DNA from: Clostridia bacterium
GTDB taxonomy: Bacteria > Bacillota > Clostridia > Oscillospirales > CAG-272
Direction: 5' to 3'
Assembly: GCA_017415805.1 (NCBI GenBank)
Contig: JAFQEC010000004.1
Coordinates: 2,843 to 66,842 of the forward strand
DNA length: 64,000 bases
The translations under genes were made by a program, and so were the position numbers. Below are positions 1,090-51,808 of this stretch, piece by piece. Numbering within the stretch: position 1 is the first letter of the stretch; every line of letters starts with the position of its first letter. The notes beneath the pieces are model-generated. The model searched no databases. It was given only the letters and a program-made list of their open reading frames with translations, and was not told where the DNA came from.

Positions 1090-3624
1090 ATGGGAGAACT
1101 GAAATTTGTGATTCAAAAAAGCCCGCGTATTGACCGACTGATCGCGCATCTGTTTGCAAAGATGCCCGAGATCGAGGCCGATCGCGCAGAGCTGGTCACC
1201 GAAAGCTATAAGCAAACCGAGCATCTGCCCATCATCAAGCGGCGCAGTGCGGCGTTTCGGTACATTCTGGAAAATATTCCGATCGTGATCCGCCCCGAGG
1301 AGCTGATCGTGGGTAGCAACTCGCTGGCGCCCCGCGGCTGCCAGACCTTCCCTGAATACTCCTTTGAGTGGCTGGAGCCCGAGTTTGACACCATCGCCAC
1401 GCGCGAGGCCGATCCCTTCTACATTTCCAAGGAAACGGTGGAACGTTTGAAGAAGGTGCATCCCTACTGGAAGGGCAAGACCGTGAGCGACCTTGCCGCC
1501 GCAGGCATGGATCCCGAGGTGCTTGACGTGTTCCTCAACCACGGCATGTTCACCGTCGGCAACTATTTCTACAACGGCGTGGGACACATCAACGTCAACT
1601 ACGCCAAGGTCATCAACAAGGGGCTCGAGGCCATCATTGACGAGGCCAAGGCCGCCATGGCAAAGCTCCATCGCGGCATGGGCGACTATCAGAAAAGAAA
1701 GCAATTTCAAGAGGCCGTGATCGAGAGCTGTGAGGCCGTGATCGCCTACGCCGCCCGTTACGCGGATCTTGCGCGCCGCGAGGCCGCATACTGTGCCGAC
1801 CCCGCACGCCGCGCCGAGCTTTTGGAAATTGCCGAAAACTGCACCCGTGTGCCGGGTAAGCCCGCGCGCAGCTTCTACGAGGCCTGCCAGTCCTTCTGGT
1901 TTATCCAGCAGCTGCTGCAATGCGAATCCAGCGGTCACTCGATCTCTCCCGGTCGCTTTGACCAATATATGTATCCGCTGTTCAAAAAGGACATGGATGC
2001 AGGTGTTCTTACGTATGAAAAGGCGCAGGAGTATATCGACTGCATCTGGGTCAAGCTCAACGACCTCAACAAGGTCCGCGATGCCGCCTCGGCCGAGGGG
2101 TTTGCGGGCTACGGATTGTTCCAGAATCTGATCGTTGGCGGTCAGAACGAGCAGGGCGTGGACGCGACCAACGACCTTTCCTACATGTGCATGGAAGCCA
2201 CGATGCACGTGCGCTTGCCCCAGCCCTCTCTCTCGATCCGCGTTTGGAACTGCTCGCCCCACGATCTTCTGATCAAGGCCGCATCCGTCACGCGCGAGGG
2301 ACTCGGCGTGCCCGCGTTCTACAACGACGAGGTCATCATTCCCGCCATCATGGCGAGGGGTCTGACGCTCGAGGACGCGCGTGATTACTGTATCATCGGC
2401 TGCGTAGAGCCCCAAAAGGGCGCAAAGACCGACGGCTGGCACGATGCGGCCTTCTTCAACATGTGCCGCCCGCTGGAGCTGGTCTTCTCCAACGGTATGG
2501 ACAAGGGCAAGCAGATCGGCCTTCGCACGGGCGAGGTCGAGCAGATGACCTCGTTTGAGGAGTTCTTTGACGCATACAAGAAGCAACAGCTTCACATGAT
2601 CGAAATGATGGTGCACGCCGACAACGCCGTGGACTATGCACACGGCGTGCGTTGCCCCCTTCCCTTTGAGTCTTGCCTTTGCGACGATTGCATCGAGCGG
2701 GGCCTTAGCCTGCAGGAGGGCGGTGCACACTACAACTTCACAGGCCCGCAGGGCTTTGGCATTGCCAATATGACCGATGCGCTCCTGGCGGTCAAAACGC
2801 TCGTATTTGACGAGAAGAAGGTCACCATGGCCGAAATGAAGCAGGCGCTTGCCGACAACTTCGGCAAGGGTATCCTTCCCAAAAAGGCCGTGGAGCTCAC
2901 CACGCAGATCACACGCGAGCTCATGGCAGGCGGTGCGAGCGTGAATGACGATACCATCCGCACGGTCTACCGCAACCTGACCAACGCCGAAACCGTTGAT
3001 CCCGCGAAGAAGGCGCGCTACGCCGAGATCCTTTCGATGATCGAGGCTCTGCCCAAATACGGCAACGACCTCCCCGAGATCGACAGCTTTGCGCGTGAGG
3101 TCGGCAACACCTACACTAAGCCCCTTGAGCATTATACCAACCCGCGCGGCGGCATCTTCCAGGCAGGTCTTTATCCCGTTTCTGCCAACGTGCCGCTTGG
3201 CTATCAGACGGGCGCAACGCCCGACGGCAGACTGGCCTTTACGCCCATCGCCGACGGTGTGGGCCCCGCATCGGGGCGCGACGTCAAGGGCCCCACGGCA
3301 ACCGCGAACTCGGTGGCACGCCTGGATCACGGCATCGCCTCTAACGGCACGCTGTTCAACCAGAAATTCCACCCCTCTGCGCTTTCCTCGATGGCAAGCC
3401 TTGAGAAATTTGTGGCATACCTGCGCGGCTACTTCGACCAGAAGGGCATGCACGTGCAGTACAACGTCGTTTCGCGCGAGACGCTGATCGACGCACAGAA
3501 AAACCCCGAAAAATACAAGAATCTTGTGGTGCGCGTAGCGGGCTACAGCGCGCTGTTCACCACACTCTCACGCTCGTTGCAGGACGACATCATCGCCCGT
3601 ACCGAGCACGGAACTGTCAAATAA
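1090..3624 (+). CDS. Glycyl radical enzyme, BMC-associated diol-dehydratase type (1,2-propanediol dehydratase-like; substrate not provable here)
   Basis: 844 aa with the C-terminal glycyl-radical motif VVRVAGYSALF and the active-site loop IIGCVEPQ (Cys/Glu). GGGAG RBS upstream. Its activase follows and shell genes flank it. Confidence 0.9.
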   Translation: MGELKFVIQKSPRIDRLIAHLFAKMPEIEADRAELVTESYKQTEHLPIIKRRSAAFRYILENIPIVIRPEELIVGSNSLAPRGCQTFPEYSFEWLEPEFDTIATREADPFYISKETVERLKKVHPYWKGKTVSDLAAAGMDPEVLDVFLNHGMFTVGNYFYNGVGHINVNYAKVINKGLEAIIDEAKAAMAKLHRGMGDYQKRKQFQEAVIESCEAVIAYAARYADLARREAAYCADPARRAELLEIAENCTRVPGKPARSFYEACQSFWFIQQLLQCESSGHSISPGRFDQYMYPLFKKDMDAGVLTYEKAQEYIDCIWVKLNDLNKVRDAASAEGFAGYGLFQNLIVGGQNEQGVDATNDLSYMCMEATMHVRLPQPSLSIRVWNCSPHDLLIKAASVTREGLGVPAFYNDEVIIPAIMARGLTLEDARDYCIIGCVEPQKGAKTDGWHDAAFFNMCRPLELVFSNGMDKGKQIGLRTGEVEQMTSFEEFFDAYKKQQLHMIEMMVHADNAVDYAHGVRCPLPFESCLCDDCIERGLSLQEGGAHYNFTGPQGFGIANMTDALLAVKTLVFDEKKVTMAEMKQALADNFGKGILPKKAVELTTQITRELMAGGASVNDDTIRTVYRNLTNAETVDPAKKARYAEILSMIEALPKYGNDLPEIDSFAREVGNTYTKPLEHYTNPRGGIFQAGLYPVSANVPLGYQTGATPDGRLAFTPIADGVGPASGRDVKGPTATANSVARLDHGIASNGTLFNQKFHPSALSSMASLEKFVAYLRGYFDQKGMHVQYNVVSRETLIDAQKNPEKYKNLVVRVAGYSALFTTLSRSLQDDIIARTEHGTVK

Positions 3625-3651: not shown

Positions 3652-4443
3652 ATGAATATCTATGAGCAGACAGGCCGTATTTTTGACATACAGCGCTACT
3701 CCATTCACGACGGCCCCGGTATTCGCACTATCGTCTTTTTGAAGGGCTGCTACCTGCGCTGCCGCTGGTGCTGCAACCCCGAATCGCAGGAATACAAGCT
3801 CCAGGAGCTGACGCAGGGCGGAAAAACGCGTACCGTTGGCAGGGATGTGACAGTTGGTGAGGTCATGGACGAGATCCGAAGGGATGCCGTTTATTACAGC
3901 CGAAGCGGCGGCGGTGTAACACTGTCGGGCGGAGAGTGCATGGCACAGCCCGAATTTTCCGAGGCCTTGCTTCGCGCCGTGCACGAATACGGCTACACCA
4001 CCGCCATTGAAACCACCGCGTTTGCATCGCGCGAGGTGGTGGACCGCCTGCTGCCGCACGTGGACTATTTCCTGCTGGACATCAAGCATATGGACAGCGA
4101 AAAGCACCGTCAGTTCTGCGGCAAGCCGAATGACGTGATCCTGGAAAACGCGCGGTATATCGCACAAAACGCAAAAAATTTAGTGATCCGCGTGCCAACC
4201 GTCCCCACCTTCAACGCAAGTGCCGAGGAGATCGCCGCCATTGCGCGCTTTGCCGACTCCCTGCCGCGCGTTGGCGAGCTTCACCTGCTGCCCTATCATC
4301 GCTTGGGGCAGGATAAGTACGCAGGGATCGGCCGCGAATACACTCTGTCACACATCACGCCCCCCACCAACGAGGAAATGGAGCAGTTGGCAGCCGCCGC
4401 ACGCGCGGCAGCACCCCGACTGCACGTACAGATCGGCGGCTGA
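3652..4443 (+). CDS. Glycyl-radical enzyme activating enzyme (radical SAM)
   Basis: 263 aa with the CxxxCxxC cluster motif (CYLRCRWCCNPE) and LSGGEC. AAAGGAG RBS upstream. It is the short PflA-like form with no extra ferredoxin-like Cys insert. Confidence 0.9.
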   Translation: MNIYEQTGRIFDIQRYSIHDGPGIRTIVFLKGCYLRCRWCCNPESQEYKLQELTQGGKTRTVGRDVTVGEVMDEIRRDAVYYSRSGGGVTLSGGECMAQPEFSEALLRAVHEYGYTTAIETTAFASREVVDRLLPHVDYFLLDIKHMDSEKHRQFCGKPNDVILENARYIAQNAKNLVIRVPTVPTFNASAEEIAAIARFADSLPRVGELHLLPYHRLGQDKYAGIGREYTLSHITPPTNEEMEQLAAAARAAAPRLHVQIGG

Positions 4444-4470: not shown

Positions 4471-4839
4471 ATGGAAGCTATGGAAATGAGAGATAAAATG
4501 CGCATCGTGCAGGAGCTTGTCCCCGGGCGGCAGATCACGCTGGCGCATGTGATCGCCAATCCCGATCCCATTCTTTATCAGAAAATGGGCCTTGATCCCA
4601 AGCTGGATTATCAGCGTGCTGCCATCGGCGTGCTGACGATCTCGCCCGCTGAAACGGCTGTTATCACCGCCGATATTGCCCTCAAGGCATCGGGCGCGGA
4701 GCTTGGCTTTGTGGACAGATTTTCGGGCACGCTGATCATCACGGGAACGGTGGATGAGGTCGAGGCCTCGTTCCAGGCGATCGCCACCTACTTCCGTGAC
4801 ACGCTGAAATTCTCGGTGTGCGACGTCACGCGCACGTAA
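4471..4839 (+). CDS. pduU: Circularly permuted BMC shell protein, PduU/EutS-like
   Basis: 122 aa. IVQELVPGRQITLAHVIANP and GVLTISPAETAVITADIALKASG match the PduU/EutS pattern. AAGGAG RBS upstream. Confidence 0.8.
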   Translation: MEAMEMRDKMRIVQELVPGRQITLAHVIANPDPILYQKMGLDPKLDYQRAAIGVLTISPAETAVITADIALKASGAELGFVDRFSGTLIITGTVDEVEASFQAIATYFRDTLKFSVCDVTRT

Positions 4840-4843
4840 ACTT

Positions 4844-5269
4844 ATGAAAAAGATCATCCTGATGGGGCGTGTGGCGGCAGGAAAGACCACCCTGACGCAG
4901 GCCCTGAAGGGCGAGCAGCTCCATTATTGTAAGACACAATACGTCAATTATACCGACACCATCATTGATACGCCCGGCGAATACACCGAGGTGCATACAT
5001 TGAGTGCGGCGCTTGCTGTCTACTCCTACGAGGCCGATATCATCGGGCTTGTGATCAGCGCCAACGAGCCGTTTTGCGTATTTCCACCCCACTGCACCTA
5101 TCACGTCAACCGTGAGGTGGTCGGCATCATTACGGGCATCGACAAGCCCGATGCCAACGTGGAGCTGGCCGAGCTCTGGCTGCGAAACTGCGGGTGCAAG
5201 AAGCTGTTTTACGTTTCGTCCTACACGGGCGAGGGACTGAACGATATCATCGATTACCTAAATCAATGA
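4844..5269 (+). CDS. pduV: EutP/PduV-family small GTPase
   Basis: 141 aa with P-loop GRVAAGKTTL and DTPGEY. Length and order match PduV/EutP. It starts 4 nt after the pduU-like stop. Confidence 0.8.
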   Translation: MKKIILMGRVAAGKTTLTQALKGEQLHYCKTQYVNYTDTIIDTPGEYTEVHTLSAALAVYSYEADIIGLVISANEPFCVFPPHCTYHVNREVVGIITGIDKPDANVELAELWLRNCGCKKLFYVSSYTGEGLNDIIDYLNQ

Positions 5270-5283
5270 AAAGGATGTAAGCT

Positions 5284-6075
5284 ATGGCCATCACGAAAAC
5301 GATATGCTTTGCAAACAACAAGGGCGGCAGCGGTAAATCCACTACCTGCGCCAACGTCGGCTATGCCCTTTCGACCCTGGGCAAGAAGGTGCTGCTGATC
5401 GACGGCGATATGCAAATGAACCTGACGCTCTCCTTTTTTGACGACGAGCGCTCGCTTGAATTTGCCAAGAGCGATCTCAATCTTTATCGCGGCATCACAG
5501 AGCAAAAGGATCTGAGCGATTTCATCCAGCATACCGACTACAAGGGACTGGATCTCATTCCCTCCTCCACGCTGATGAGCAGCATTGAGTTCGACCTGTT
5601 CACCAAATGGCAGCGCGAGTTCATCCTCAAAAAGGGGTTGGAGCGCATCAAGGCGACCGGAAAATACGATTACATCCTGATCGATGCCCCCCCCACGCTC
5701 GGCTGCTGGGTCATGAACATCATGTGCGCCAGCGACCACCTCGTCATTCCCGTTGAGGCATCGCCGTGGGGACTGTTCGGCATCGCGAATATGTTTGAGT
5801 TTTACGAGCAGATCCGGCAGGTCGCGCCCACGCTCAATTTGTTGGGCATCGCCGTGACCAAAGCAAGCGAACGCAAAAATTATTTCAAGCAGACCATTGA
5901 CACGCTCTCCTCGCTGGAAAACGTACGGCTGTTTTCGTCGATCATCCGCGTGGACAGCATGGTGGAGTGGTCTCAGGACGTCAGCAAGCCCGTGATGGCT
6001 TATAAGAAGAGCAGTCGCGCGGCACAAGAATACATGGAACTTGCAAAGGAGATCGAAACATATGTCAATCGGTAA
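5284..6075 (+). CDS. ParA/MinD-family ATPase (McdA-like candidate), last-but-one gene of the BMC operon
   Basis: 263 aa with the deviant Walker A NNKGGSGKST and Walker B YILIDAPP. AAAGGA RBS lies in the 14-nt gap after pduV. No ParB gene is nearby. Confidence 0.85.
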   Translation: MAITKTICFANNKGGSGKSTTCANVGYALSTLGKKVLLIDGDMQMNLTLSFFDDERSLEFAKSDLNLYRGITEQKDLSDFIQHTDYKGLDLIPSSTLMSSIEFDLFTKWQREFILKKGLERIKATGKYDYILIDAPPTLGCWVMNIMCASDHLVIPVEASPWGLFGIANMFEFYEQIRQVAPTLNLLGIAVTKASERKNYFKQTIDTLSSLENVRLFSSIIRVDSMVEWSQDVSKPVMAYKKSSRAAQEYMELAKEIETYVNR

Positions 6076-6292
6076 GGACAGCATTCAAAAGCGTGTAGCA
6101 AAGCCGCAGCAGCCCGCTGCAATCGAAAAGAAGGCGACCGCGCCCAAGGCAGCCCCCAAGAAAGCCCCCACCAAGACCTTGGTCGTGACCAAAATTGCAC
6201 CCGAGGTGGTGGAGAAGGTCACGGGACACAGCGAAAAGGCGGCCGTGGAAAAGGTCAGCGTTGGTAGCGATCTTCCCTATTTCCTGCTCTGA
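6062..6292 (+). CDS. Small Lys/Ala/Pro-rich, probably disordered protein (candidate ParA partner)
   Basis: ATG 6062 lies 14 nt inside the parA-like gene, with AAGGAG at 6046-6051. 76 aa with 13 Lys, no Cys or Trp, and a hydrophobic tail DLPYFLL. A terminator follows directly. Confidence 0.5.
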   Translation: MSIGKDSIQKRVAKPQQPAAIEKKATAPKAAPKKAPTKTLVVTKIAPEVVEKVTGHSEKAAVEKVSVGSDLPYFLL

Positions 6293-6296
6293 TAAG

Positions 6297-6325
6297 AAAC
6301 CCAAGGCTTTGCCTTGGGTTTTTGC
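6297..6325 (+). terminator. Intrinsic terminator closing the GRM operon
   Basis: An 11-bp stem (AAACCCAAGGC / GCCTTGGGTTT) with a TTT loop, followed by a T-run. Confidence 0.8.
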
Positions 6326-6405
6326 TTTTAAGGCGAGACATTTTGGCGATATCCCTTTACTTCTCGCCCCAAAAGCGGTATAATAGAAAAAAGGGGGGTG
6401 TAACA

Positions 6406-7173: not shown

Positions 7174-7199
7174 GGGCGACCTGCTTTTGCAGGTCGCCC
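7174..7199. terminator. Bidirectional terminator between lgt and the ybaK-like gene
   Basis: GGGCGACCTGC-TTTT-GCAGGTCGCCC hairpin between convergent genes. Confidence 0.75.
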
Positions 7200-7206
7200 G
7201 TTTCGT

Positions 7207-7686
7207 TTATTCTTCCTCTTGCCAGCCCTTGGCGACGTCTACCCATGCGATCACGTTACCAAGGCGCTCCAGCGCGGCGGCATCCATGGGGATGGCCGAA
7301 TGTGCGCTGCCTGCGGCGGGATAGAAGGTATTGAAGCGCTTGAGCGATACATCGGCAAACACGCGTACGCCCTCCTTGACGGCAAAGGGGCACACGCCCC
7401 CCGGGGCGTGGCCGATCTTTTCCTCCACCTCGTCAAACGGGATCATTTTGGCCTTCTCGCCGAAGGTGTCCTTAAATTTGCGGTTATCGGCCTTGGCCTC
7501 GCCCGACATGACGACCAGAACGGGGCCCGTAGAGAGCTCAAACGAGAGCGTTTTGGCGATCTCACGCTCCTCGCACCCAATGGCCGCGGCGGCCAGCGCC
7601 ACGGTGGCGGTATCGGCGGCAAATTCGATGACCTCGGCGGCACAGCCTGCCTGCTTCAAATACGCCCTCACTGCTTCGATCGACAT
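7207..7686 (-). CDS. YbaK/EbsC-family aminoacyl-tRNA deacylase
   Basis: 159 aa from M20 of the ORF. AKTLSF, VVMSGEAKADNRK and HAPGGVCPF match the YbaK-fold pattern. A promoter and GGGTAAGGA RBS fit this start. Confidence 0.7.
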   Translation of the reverse strand: MSIEAVRAYLKQAGCAAEVIEFAADTATVALAAAAIGCEEREIAKTLSFELSTGPVLVVMSGEAKADNRKFKDTFGEKAKMIPFDEVEEKIGHAPGGVCPFAVKEGVRVFADVSLKRFNTFYPAAGSAHSAIPMDAAALERLGNVIAWVDVAKGWQEEE

Positions 7687-7714
7687 ATCCTTACCCACTT
7701 TCTGCTTTTTTGTC

Positions 7715-7743
7715 ATTCTACCACAAATACGCACAAGATGCAA
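7715..7743 (-). promoter_or_regulatory. Sigma-70-type promoter of the ybaK-like gene
   Basis: On the minus strand: TTGCAT, 17 nt, TAGAAT, with a TG extension. Confidence 0.55.
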
Positions 7744-48872: not shown

Positions 48873-49580
48873 TCAATATTTCAGCTTTTTTTGCAGCTCT
48901 GCCATTTGCTCGGCCGTGGGTGTTTCGTAACGGTCAAAGGGAAATTCCAACCCCATATTGTCGTATTTCACGCGGCAGATCTTGCGAAAGGGCAAGAGCT
49001 CCACGCCGTCCACCACCGAATGTGCGGCGGCAAGGGCGTTCAGCATTTCCACGCTCTGTGCGGTATCGTTGAGCGAGGGGATTGTGACCTGACGCAGCGT
49101 GGTGGGGATCCCCTTTGCTTGCAGCTCGTCCAGGAACGCCAAGGGGGGCTCGATACCACAGCCCACGAAGGCGCGGTACTGCGCATCGGTGGGGTATTTG
49201 ATGTCCAGCAAAACGCGGTCGGTCACGGCAAGCAACGCGCGCACGCGCCCGTCCAACAAGCTGCCCGAGGTGTCAAGGCAGGTGTGGATGCCGCGCGCGT
49301 GGCACTCCTCGAACAGTGCGCGCACGAAATCCGATTGCAGCAGCGGCTCACCGCCCGAGACCGTGATGCCACCGTCCTTGCCGAAATACGTGCGGTAGCG
49401 CGCGGCGGTCTCGGCCAGCTCCGCGGCGGTCATTTCCCTGCCGCCCTCGCACGCCCACGTATCGGGATTGTGACAGCATCCGCAGCGCAGGTTACAGCCC
49501 TGCACGAACACAACGAAACGGACACCCGGCCCGTCGAGCGTGCCGAGTGTCTGAATCGAATGAATGCGTCCCTTCATCAC
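48873..49580 (-). CDS. pflA: Pyruvate formate-lyase activating enzyme
   Basis: 235 aa with [27 protein letters not shown] and VSGGEP motifs. Confidence 0.9.
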
Positions 49581-51808
49581 ATGCTCTCGTGGAAGGTACG
49601 GCTGATGACCTCACGCTGCTGCTCGCGCGAGAGCTTGTTGAAGTTCACGGCGTAGCCCGAAACGCGAATGGTCAGGTTCGGGTAGGCATCGGGGTCCTCG
49701 TACGCCTTCATCAGCGTCTCACGGGAGAGCACGTTGATGTTGATGTGGTGCGCCATCTTGGCAAAATAGCCGTCCAGAATGGTCACCAGATTGCCGACGC
49801 GCTCGGCGTCGGTTCTGCCCAGTGCCGCGGGCGTGATCGAGAAGGTGTTGGAAACGCCGTCACGGCAGTCGTCATAGTCGATCTTGGCCACCGAGTTGAG
49901 CGACGCGAGCGCACCGTTCTCCTCACGGTTGTGCATGGGGTTGGCACCGGGGGCGAAGGGCTCGCCCGCCTTGCGGCCGTCGGGAGTGTTGTTGGTGTGC
50001 TTGCCGTACATCACGTTCGAGGTGATGGTCAGCACCGAGAGGGTATGCTCGGCGTTGCGGTAGGTGGGTGTCTTGCGAAGCTCGGTGATCACCTTGTGCG
50101 TGAGCTCCTTGGCGATGCTGTCCACGCGGTCGTCGTCGTTGCCGAACTTGGGGAAATCGCCCACGGTCTTGAAATCCACGATATAGCCGTTCTCGTCCTT
50201 GATGGGCGACACGCTTGCGTGCTTGATGGCGCTGAGCGAATCGGTCACGACCGAAAGGCCCGCCACGCCAAAGGCCATAAAGCGATGCACGTCGGTATCG
50301 TGCAGAGCCATTTGCGTCTTCTCGTAGGCATATTTATCGTGCATATAGTGAATGACGTTCATGGTATTCACGTACAGGCGGGAGAGCCACTGCAAATAAA
50401 TGTCGTAGCGCTCCATCACCGCCGCAAAATCCAGCTTATCTCCCGCCAGCACGTCCATCTGCGGGCCGATCTTCATGCCGCTGGTGGTGTCATAGCCGCC
50501 GTTGATGGCGATGAGCAGCAGCTTGGCGAGGTTACAGCGCGCGCCGAAGAACTGCATTTGCTTGCCGATGCGCATCGCGGAGACGCAGCAGGCGATCGCA
50601 TAGTCGTCGCCGTAGCGCGGGCGCATCAGATCGTCGTTTTCATACTGGATGGAGTCGGTATCCACCGAGACCTTGGCACAGTATTTCTTGAAGCCCTCGG
50701 GCAGCTCGGTCGACCAGAGCACCGTGAGGTTGGGCTCGGGCGACGAGCCAAGCGTGTAGAGCGTGTTGAGGATACGGAAGCTGCTCTTGGTGACCAGCGT
50801 GCGGCCGTCCTCACCCATACCGCCCACGGCCTCGGTGATCCACATGGGGTCGCCGCCGAAGAGCTCGTTATAGTCGGGGGTGCGCAGATGGCGCGCCATA
50901 CGCAGCTTCATCACGAAATCGTCGATCAGCTCCTGCGCCTCGCTCTCGGTCAGCGTGCCGTTTGCAAGATCGCGCTCGATATAAATGTCGAAGAAGGTCG
51001 AGACACGGCCCAGCGAGTTTGCCGCGCCATTCTGCTCCTTAATGGCGGCAAGGTATGCGAAATAGGTCCACTGGATCGCCTCGCGTGCGTTTGCGGCGGG
51101 GCCGCTGATGTCGTAGCCGTACATGGCCGCCATTTCCTTGAGGAAGCCGAGGAACGAGATCTGACGGTGCAGCTCCTCGTCCAAACGGATCACGTCGACG
51201 TCAAAATCGCGCGTTGCCAGTGCTTGCTTGTCCTTCTTTTTTTCCTCGATCAGGTGATCCACGCCGTACAGCGCCACGCGGCGGTAGTCGCCGATGATAC
51301 GGCCGCGGCCATAGCCGTCGGGCAGGCCCGTGATCACGTGGCACTTGCGCGCCAAACGCATCTCGTCGGTATAGGCGCGGAATACGCCGTCGTTGTGGGT
51401 GGTGCGGTAGCAAAAGCCCTCCTCGACCGCGTTGCCGAGCTTATAGCCGTAGGCCTCGCAGGCAGCGCGTGCCATGCGGATACCGCCGAAGGGGTTGACG
51501 CCGCGCTTGAGCGGGCGGTTGGTCTGCAGACCCACGATCAGCTCCTTGTCCTTGTCCAGATAACCGGGGGCGTAGGCCGTGAGCGAGGAGACCGTGTTGG
51601 TGTCAATATCCAGCACGCCGCCGTACTGACGCTCCAGCGTGAAGAGCGATTGCAGCTTTTTCATGAGCTCCGCGGTGCGCTCGGTTGCGCCCGCAAGGAA
51701 GTTCGCGCCGCCCGTATAGGGGCGATAGTTTTGTTGAATAAAATCGCGGACGTCGATGGCGCTCTGCCATACGCCGGCCTTGAAGCCATGCCAATTCTTG
51801 TGTTCCAT
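49577..51808 (-). CDS. pflB: Pyruvate formate-lyase (formate C-acetyltransferase)
   Basis: 743 aa with the catalytic IACCVSA and the glycyl-radical motif [11 protein letters not shown]. Confidence 0.95.

Follow-up and report, generated by a model that had tools for sequence, protein, structure and literature searches.

The closest described counterparts of the gene pair treated here are the McdAB systems of carboxysomes. The pair consists of a gene for a ParA/Soj-type ATPase of 263 aa (parA, 5284–6075, + strand) and a small open reading frame (ORF) of 76 aa plus stop (6062–6292, +), in a 64,000-nucleotide stretch of the Clostridia bacterium contig JAFQEC010000004.1, from here on called the window. 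McdB proteins are disordered, carry charge at the N-terminus and need an aromatic residue at the C-terminus for carboxysome binding (PMC8359340; PMC11321042). In McdB from S. elongatus, Tyr functionally substitutes for Trp, and acidic residues are found near the motif (PMC11321042). The presence of ParA (PF01656) within bacterial microcompartment (BMC) loci was noted in 2014 by Axen et al. (PMC4207490). MacCready 2021 described McdA/B-like sequences in or beside four types of non-carboxysome BMC operons and a C-terminal Tyr among the last four residues (PMC8359340). Basalla 2024 explicitly named the propanediol utilization (PDU) and glycyl radical enzyme microcompartment (GRM) types, with a Tyr or Phe conserved in the last five residues (PMC11321042). 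MacCready 2020 (PMC7182216), although cited for other BMCs, makes no mention of PDU or GRM, and the supplement of PMC11321042 gave no match for YYLL, YFLL, GRM or PDU. A 2025 review considers mcdAB-like genes as only "occasionally detected" near other BMC operons, with directed studies lacking (PMC13052382).

McdAB-like positioning of catabolic BMCs is already in print as a bioinformatic hypothesis, and by description we liken our pair to the published GRM/PDU pairs. By analogy with these systems, we regard it as fairly probable that the ATPase and the small protein, which we call the adaptor, form an McdAB-like positioning module of a catabolic GRM of the propanediol-dehydratase type. An McdAB-like role in positioning had been put forward in a preliminary description of the locus, and it is supported by the linkage of the pair to GRM operons, by the conservation of the small ORF and by an adaptor-like architecture (basic/aliphatic peptide, linker, aromatic C-terminal motif). 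New here are a defined three-module family, its narrow taxonomic and locus range and a near-invariant coupling overlap, together with a Soj-like rather than McdA-like origin of the ATPase, a ParB-like N-terminal peptide and variants with an FtsK-gamma domain. As in the McdAB systems (alpha-McdAB of Halothiobacillus neapolitanus and the McdAB-like pairs of GRM and PDU), the small gene comes after that of a ParA ATPase bearing the signature lysine, and both lie within a BMC operon. The cargo is different, being a catabolic glycyl radical enzyme (GRE) metabolosome of strictly anaerobic gut Clostridia, known here from its genes alone.

The window opens inside an operon on the + strand, the start of which lies upstream of the window. 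Its first gene here is the 3' part of a PduS-like gene (33–488, Pfam RnfC_N domain), followed by a PduT-like tandem-BMC shell protein (526–1071, two Pfam BMC domains, 2e-39). Next come a GRE of 844 aa, of the B12-independent 1,2-propanediol dehydratase type (1090–3624, Pfam PFL-like and Gly_radical), its radical SAM activase (3652–4443, Pfam Radical_SAM and Fer4_12), a PduU-like BMC-domain shell protein (4471–4839, Pfam BMC 1e-11) and, directly 5' of parA, a small GTPase-like protein of the PduV/EutP family (4844–5269). The signature enzyme of the microcompartment is the 844-aa GRE. In a PDB sequence search it matched the Roseburia diol dehydratase 5I2A over the full length, with 1208 bits. 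With the NCBIfam CutC model, its score was under the cutoff. In public assemblies the same contig (L067) carries upstream a zinc alcohol dehydrogenase, six BMC-H proteins, PduL, EutN and the full-length PduS (442 aa). Because of the full-length 5I2A match, the CutC score below cutoff and these upstream genes, the organelle is, judged by its gene content, a GRM of the propanediol-dehydratase type.

The parA gene starts 14 nt past the PduV stop, with AAGGA ahead of position 5284. An intrinsic terminator with a 13-bp stem, a 3-nt loop and a T-run closes the operon (6295–6329, +). Its hairpin (6295–6323) has a folding energy of −23.3 kcal/mol (z = −4.67), and none of 200 shuffled sequences folded as well. 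This terminator was overlooked by a simple terminator scan and was established by direct folding. As read from the sequence, parA and the small ORF are the last two genes of the GRM operon and are predicted to be co-transcribed with it. The small ORF begins with ATG 6062, overlaps parA by 14 nt and has a Shine-Dalgarno sequence, AAGGAG, within the parA coding sequence, 10 nt 5' of its start (6046–6051, +). The near-invariant overlap and this internal Shine-Dalgarno sequence indicate that the two genes are probably translationally coupled. The spacing of parA and its own ribosome-binding site, the strong hairpin after the pair, and the overlap with the suggested coupling had all been pointed out in the preliminary description and hold. 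3' of the terminator we found a promoter-like site, followed by lgt.

When one genome of each GTDB species was scanned for the pattern, 58 loci with the pair were recovered. Nearly all of them are titled Clostridia, Eubacteriales, Oscillospiraceae or Clostridium sp. metagenome-assembled genomes (MAGs), and their isolate names refer to gut or faecal sources, e.g., deer, goat, sheep and horse. The order PduS-PduT-GRE-activase-PduU-PduV-ParA-small ORF was recovered by tblastn in every locus with enough upstream DNA, and metagenome contigs with sufficient upstream DNA had the identical order through ParA and the small ORF. Identity to the window proteins ranged from 68 to 89% for ParA and from 28 to 61% for the adaptor in the 58 loci, in keeping with an enzyme that is paired with a disordered protein. 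The 14-nt overlap was present in all loci but one. In the exception (L011:9179-10231) the adaptor has no overlap with parA, and the ParA match stops ~40 nt ahead of the adaptor ATG.

The genes downstream of the pair vary among loci, and therefore the pair belongs to the operon rather than to the neighbourhood. Among the distant members of the family, P0237 has the standard gene order. The locus of P0227 is rearranged and GRM5-like, with GRE, activase, BMC, PduV, class II aldolase, aldehyde dehydrogenase, alcohol dehydrogenase, BMC, PduL, BMC, DeoR, ParA and the small ORF, so that the pair stands at its end, after the DeoR regulator. Since the pair closes also this differently ordered locus, the linkage appears to be functional, and not merely an inherited gene order.

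These data bear on the alternative that the pair is a DNA partition system of a chromosome, plasmid or integrated element, lying fortuitously beside a BMC operon, with the small protein as a novel centromere-binding protein. Such a reading would fit the Soj-like ATPase, which matches the PHROG family "ParA-like partition protein", and the rare adaptor variants with an FtsK-gamma DNA-binding domain. Against it, GRM operons of ~60 species, in two gene orders, carry the pair at their 3' end, where it is apparently co-transcribed with catabolic genes and has varying flanking genes. The preliminary description had reported neither a ParB or helix-turn-helix (HTH) partner nor a parS-like repeat, in agreement with our library searches and parS and iteron scans. 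No ParB is encoded in the window, and the canonical Firmicutes parS consensus had no match at ≤3 mismatches anywhere in the window. Near the pair, neither iterated repeats nor mobile-element genes were found. The partner has no ribbon-helix-helix, HTH or ParB fold. The earlier text had also raised the question whether the ParA orthologue is normally tied to parB, parS or plasmid genes; it follows PduS-PduT-GRE-activase-PduU-PduV instead. There are no close plasmid or phage relatives: the best plasmid ParAs reach ≤39% identity to the window ParA, and the adaptor had no plasmid match. The GRM-linked ParA clade has at least 62% identity (62–100%), rearranged and detached loci included. A stray partition system is thereby extremely unlikely in our judgement.

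A word-indexed search gave 28 homologues of the small protein, and an exhaustive HMMER profile search returned only 100 matches at E ≤ 1e-3 among 1.84 billion 50%-identity representatives. The adaptor family is narrow. Although the linker has large indels, the ORF was intact in 64 of the 66 related loci; of the other two, one was apparently frameshifted and one was broken by masked bases. At invariant residues several synonymous codons were in use: AGA, CGC, CGT and AGG for Arg11, all four for Val12, and five for the Leu at position −2. Residues 6–14, which lie beyond the parA overlap, were still conserved with synonymous codon variation. Because of its homologues, its integrity in 64/66 loci and this codon usage, the small ORF is by all sequence indications a real protein-coding gene, and the conservation and coding signature on which the preliminary description had made its case depend are present.

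The small protein contains 13 Lys, 11 Ala and 7 Pro, zero Cys and Trp, and has a pI of 9.9. This composition, the basic N-terminus, the tail DLPYFLL and the lack of an HTH agree with what had been described earlier. We found no ParB, HTH or other domain match in Pfam, NCBIfam, PHROG and the PDB sequences. Matches to uS19 in these searches, with E ~0.05, were taken as chance. AlphaFold2 with the family alignment gave a mean pLDDT of 58.5 and a pTM of 0.13, with helices only at residues 5–12 and 47–53. The protein is thus predicted by the model to be largely disordered and to bear short linear motifs, and the disorder put up for checking in the preliminary description is found in the prediction.

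Three parts can be recognized in the adaptor. Position counts were made on 61 unique genome-derived sequences from related loci. The first part is an N-terminal peptide of 14 residues, MSIGKDSIQKRVAK (6062–6103, +), near-invariant across the family, with the consensus M-[PS]-[IL]-G-K-D-S-I-x-K-R-V-A-K. Positions G4, K5, S7, I8, R11 and V12 are invariant in the 61 sequences. The peptide carries the aliphatic residues I3, I8 and V12 and the basic residues K5, K10, R11 and K14. The second part is a low-complexity Lys/Ala/Pro/Thr linker, recognized by its composition and low pLDDT, with 26 aa in the window protein (6104–6181, +) and 19–94 aa across the family, variable in length yet always in frame. 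Its composition is A 24%, T 19%, K 18%, P 11% and E 9%, these five residues making up 81%. The third part is a conserved C-terminal module of 36 residues, ending in DLPYFLL here (6182–6289, +), as delimited by the position-by-position counts. Its consensus is V-L-x-N-[VI]-[AS]-P-E-[TV]-V-[EA]-[AK]-V-x-G-H-K-E ... G-x-K-[ML]-P-x-[YFH]-L-[LM]-COOH. The tail [DE/K]-[ML]-P-x-[YFH]-L-[LM] is the most conserved C-terminal element, and the C-terminal motif is kept even in the most distant family members. At position −3, Tyr was found in 29, Phe in 18 and His in 14 of the sequences, so that Tyr and Phe together account for 47/61. Separately counted, position −4 is Tyr in 14/61 sequences. A few metagenome-derived members (P0014, P0016 and P0225) have a Trp at −3. 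The total length of the adaptor ranges across the family from 69 to 144 aa.

Three further proteins (P0203, P0207 and P0216) keep the linker and the C-terminal module, with the N-terminal peptide swapped for a zinc ribbon, an IF2_N-like domain or an unrelated extension. Chimeras from gene calling or assembly may explain them, or they may be adaptors that are not coupled to ParA.

This architecture is in several respects that of McdB. The partner of the ATPase is largely disordered by prediction, has a biased composition and a charged N-terminus (K5, K10, R11 and K14 within the 14-mer). Like the non-carboxysome McdB-like proteins, it has an aromatic Tyr or Phe in the last five residues, with acidic residues nearby. 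The adaptor differs from McdB by having no detectable sequence homology to any solved or annotated protein, by having no Trp and allowing His at −3, and by a second conserved element, PEVVEKVxGH, upstream of the tail. ParB offers a second comparison, since the adaptor starts with a short aliphatic/basic peptide like the ParA-binding motifs, which dock as a helix at the ParA dimer interface (10.1101/2025.03.14.642875). In contrast to ParB, it has no ParB/Srx CTPase domain, HTH or dimerisation domain, and there is no parS. By analogy with both systems, the N-terminal 14-mer would bind ParA and stimulate its ATPase, and the C-terminal module would be the microcompartment-binding end.

Some adaptors are larger. 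Three 50%-identity representatives, P0185, P0193 and P0200 (197–304 aa), carry a bona fide FtsK_gamma winged-helix DNA-binding domain (PF09397, E 2e-13 to 4e-18), inserted in the linker between the N-terminal peptide and the C-terminal module. P0185 and P0200 follow ParA in GRM loci, with the 14-nt overlap kept (L071:6641-7555, L072:10001-10594). Given these variants and the histone-H1-like composition of the linker, it is a possibility that the adaptor itself touches DNA.

This leads to a model of direct nucleoid tethering, in which the adaptor would bind DNA by its lysine-rich linker or an FtsK-gamma domain and the BMC by its C-terminus. The organelles would hitch-hike on the chromosome, with ParA only modulating or mobilising them, and the adaptor would be functionally a ParB with a protein shell as second ligand. 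Besides the FtsK-gamma variants, this would be in line with the A/T/K/P-rich linker, the net charge of which is typically +4 to +12, and with a weak match of one member to the Pfam HC2 "histone H1-like" family. However, a folded DNA-binding domain is absent from the majority of members, among them the window protein, whose linker has 26 aa, and the sequence and length of the linker are not conserved, a few linkers being net negative. McdB, too, typically has basic disordered regions, which there tune condensate formation and are not known to bind DNA (PMC11321042). We consider such a tether unlikely. A McdB/ParB hybrid could be imagined as well, with a C-terminal LPxYLL module holding the metabolosome, DNA contacted through the H1-like linker or the FtsK-gamma winged helix, and a ParB-like peptide driving a Soj-derived ParA. 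We see in this combination a minor, doubtful possibility.

The ATPase of the window has the deviant Walker A motif KGGSGKST already noted in the preliminary description (Pfam AAA_31 1e-51, CbiA 7e-18), with the signature Lys13 and Lys18, Asp42 and Asn46 in Walker A' and Asp134 in Walker B. Residue mapping showed that the signature lysine, the Walker A' and B residues and Arg197 are kept in 54–55 of 55 orthologues. Arg197 aligns with the DNA-binding Arg189 of Bacillus subtilis Soj; in the Soj sequence used for the mapping, positions 189 and 218 are both Arg, as expected. To this Soj sequence, ParA has 32% identity. At the protein level it was 100% identical to the NCBI entry "MAG: ParA family protein [Clostridia bacterium]". 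The nearest solved structure was 8RAY (103 bits, 1.7e-28, residues 4–257), identified as the chromosomal ParA of M. xanthus via bioRxiv 10.1101/2025.03.14.642875, followed by the H. pylori Soj 6IUB (5e-24). No second ParA was found in the window. A 357-aa "ParA" (P0034) was considered as a natural ParA-adaptor fusion and rejected, being an assembly artefact with an internal duplication.

The chromosomal ParABS systems (Soj/Spo0J and M. xanthus ParA) thus have the closest ATPase by sequence, and also there the partner gene is directly downstream. The present pair differs in lying at the end of an inducible catabolic operon and not in an origin-proximal housekeeping locus.

Two other functions of the ATPase were weighed. 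As a spatial regulator of the MinD/FlhG/MipZ kind, it could place BMCs or other cargo at the membrane, the poles or the division site. Weak Pfam and NCBIfam similarities to MinD and MipZ, all under the curated cutoffs, point in this direction, but the best matches are Soj/ParA and not MinD, and the NCBIfam MinD models score far under their cutoffs. The C-terminus of ParA (...LAKEIETYVNR) has no amphipathic membrane-targeting helix of the MinD type, and the equivalent of Soj Arg189 is conserved. A MinD-like role is very improbable.

The second possibility is an assembly or maturation factor. A SIMIBI-class ATPase could act as a chaperone or nucleator of the shell or cargo, or could supply PduS, PduT or the activase with metal or Fe-S clusters, with the small protein as a scaffold or targeting subunit. 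Four cysteines are conserved in the ParA clade: C8, C22 and C148 in 55/55 orthologues and C141 in 52/55, i.e., three of the four are universal. All four are absent from the Soj sequence used for the mapping. C141 is located 7 residues past the Walker B Asp, which is the spacing of the NifH cluster ligand Cys132, and several Fe-S proteins are encoded in the operon. These cysteines may form a redox or metal site, or may only serve core packing; they align to core beta-1, alpha-1 and the post-Walker-B helix. We detected no CxxC, CxC or other known metal motif of Mrp/NBP35, CooC, Get3 or HypB in ParA, the Pfam NifH and NUBPL matches are restricted to the P-loop, and over its full length the protein most resembles chromosomal ParA/Soj. 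The positioning branch is marked by the signature lysine and by a partner whose N-terminal peptide is ParB-like. A maturation factor is quite unlikely on this evidence.

For the McdAB-like positioning module, direct demonstration extends to the layout of the genes, their conservation and their linkage to GRM operons, and from these we infer the mechanism by analogy. ATP-bound ParA dimers would coat the nucleoid non-specifically. The adaptor would grip the outside of the BMC shell via its C-terminal module [ML]-P-x-[YFH]-L-[LM], analogous to the aromatic motif of McdB, and the flexible basic linker would let the N-terminal peptide MPIGKDSIxKRVAK reach the ParA dimers and stimulate their ATP hydrolysis. 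The local depletion of ParA would then create a gradient that moves and spaces the microcompartments along the nucleoid, as a Brownian ratchet. Such spacing would prevent BMC aggregation and secure inheritance at division.

Several observations weigh against this reading. The McdA structures 6NON and 6NOO matched ParA with 55 bits and over residues 5–190 only, far under the chromosomal ParA/Soj. By sequence, the kinship to McdA appears to be one of analogy or via the wider family, not orthology. The residue equivalent to the second DNA-binding arginine of Soj, R218, is Met or Thr in the GRM-linked ParA clade, and nucleoid binding by this ParA is not assured. In the adaptor, the invariant Trp of carboxysome McdB is missing, Trp being absent from all 61 genome-derived sequences, and 14 of these have His at position −3. 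The FtsK-gamma domain in some members is not predicted by a plain McdB model. In one locus, L074:9223-10318, the pair directly follows genes for giant LRR_5/Big_2 surface proteins and lies at a contig end; the 9 kb upstream contain no BMC genes. The ParA of this locus is 65% identical to that of the window, and it is the only locus with the pair apart from BMC genes. Either a detached "satellite" copy or an assembly boundary could account for it. Finally, the contacts of the adaptor with ParA and with the shell are proposed by analogy.

PduV needs separate consideration. The preliminary description had called on the link of PduV to BMC dynamics as support. The identity of the upstream gene product as a PduV family member stood (PF10662, 3e-49; TIGR02528, 141.9 bits, above the cutoff). 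Its weight as support did not, since NCBIfam names the related EutP equivalog model acetate kinase, and for this reason the usual assumption of PduV as a positioning GTPase is not secure. The protein encoded at 4844–5269 passes the EutP/PduV subfamily model and scores well under the cutoff of the related NCBIfam equivalog "ethanolamine utilization acetate kinase EutP". Positioning of Pdu microcompartments in Salmonella, which depends on PduV/EutP or PduK, likewise concerns the spatial organisation of a propanediol metabolosome, and a PduV homologue lies directly upstream of parA here. The components are different: a Ras-like GTPase/acetate kinase and a shell protein in Salmonella, a ParA and a disordered adaptor here, and the Salmonella pdu operon has no ParA.

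Elsewhere in the window we found a second, non-BMC GRE of 743 aa (48873–51808, −; PFL-like and Gly_radical), with its own activase of 235 aa. It has only 24% identity to the GRM enzyme and lies between genes for a class II tRNA synthetase and a PLP enzyme; it is probably a pyruvate formate-lyase. A perfect 11-bp GC-rich hairpin (7174–7199), scoring as terminator on both strands, is located between the end of lgt (+) and a convergent gene (7207–7743, −), and is probably a bidirectional terminator.

The locus family bears on the spacing and inheritance of catabolic microcompartments (Pdu, Eut, GRM). With a ParA of 263 aa and an adaptor of 69–144 aa, the three parts of which are legible from the alignment, it is a compact test case. 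Natural variants for testing are at hand in the linkers of 19–94 residues, the FtsK-gamma insertions and the Y/F/H choice at position −3. The 14-residue peptide and the 6-residue tail are candidate portable tags for placing synthetic BMCs. This type of GRM relates to fucose, rhamnose and propanediol, and the species-level genomes with the pair are MAGs of gut and faecal Clostridia/Oscillospiraceae. A positioning module at such a locus would be unsurprising to the specialist, yet the locus offers a clean setting in which metabolosome positioning could first be demonstrated. If the McdB/ParB hybrid were true, the pair would be an independently evolved organelle-segregation machine of anaerobic gut Firmicutes, and the first positioning system shown for any metabolosome.

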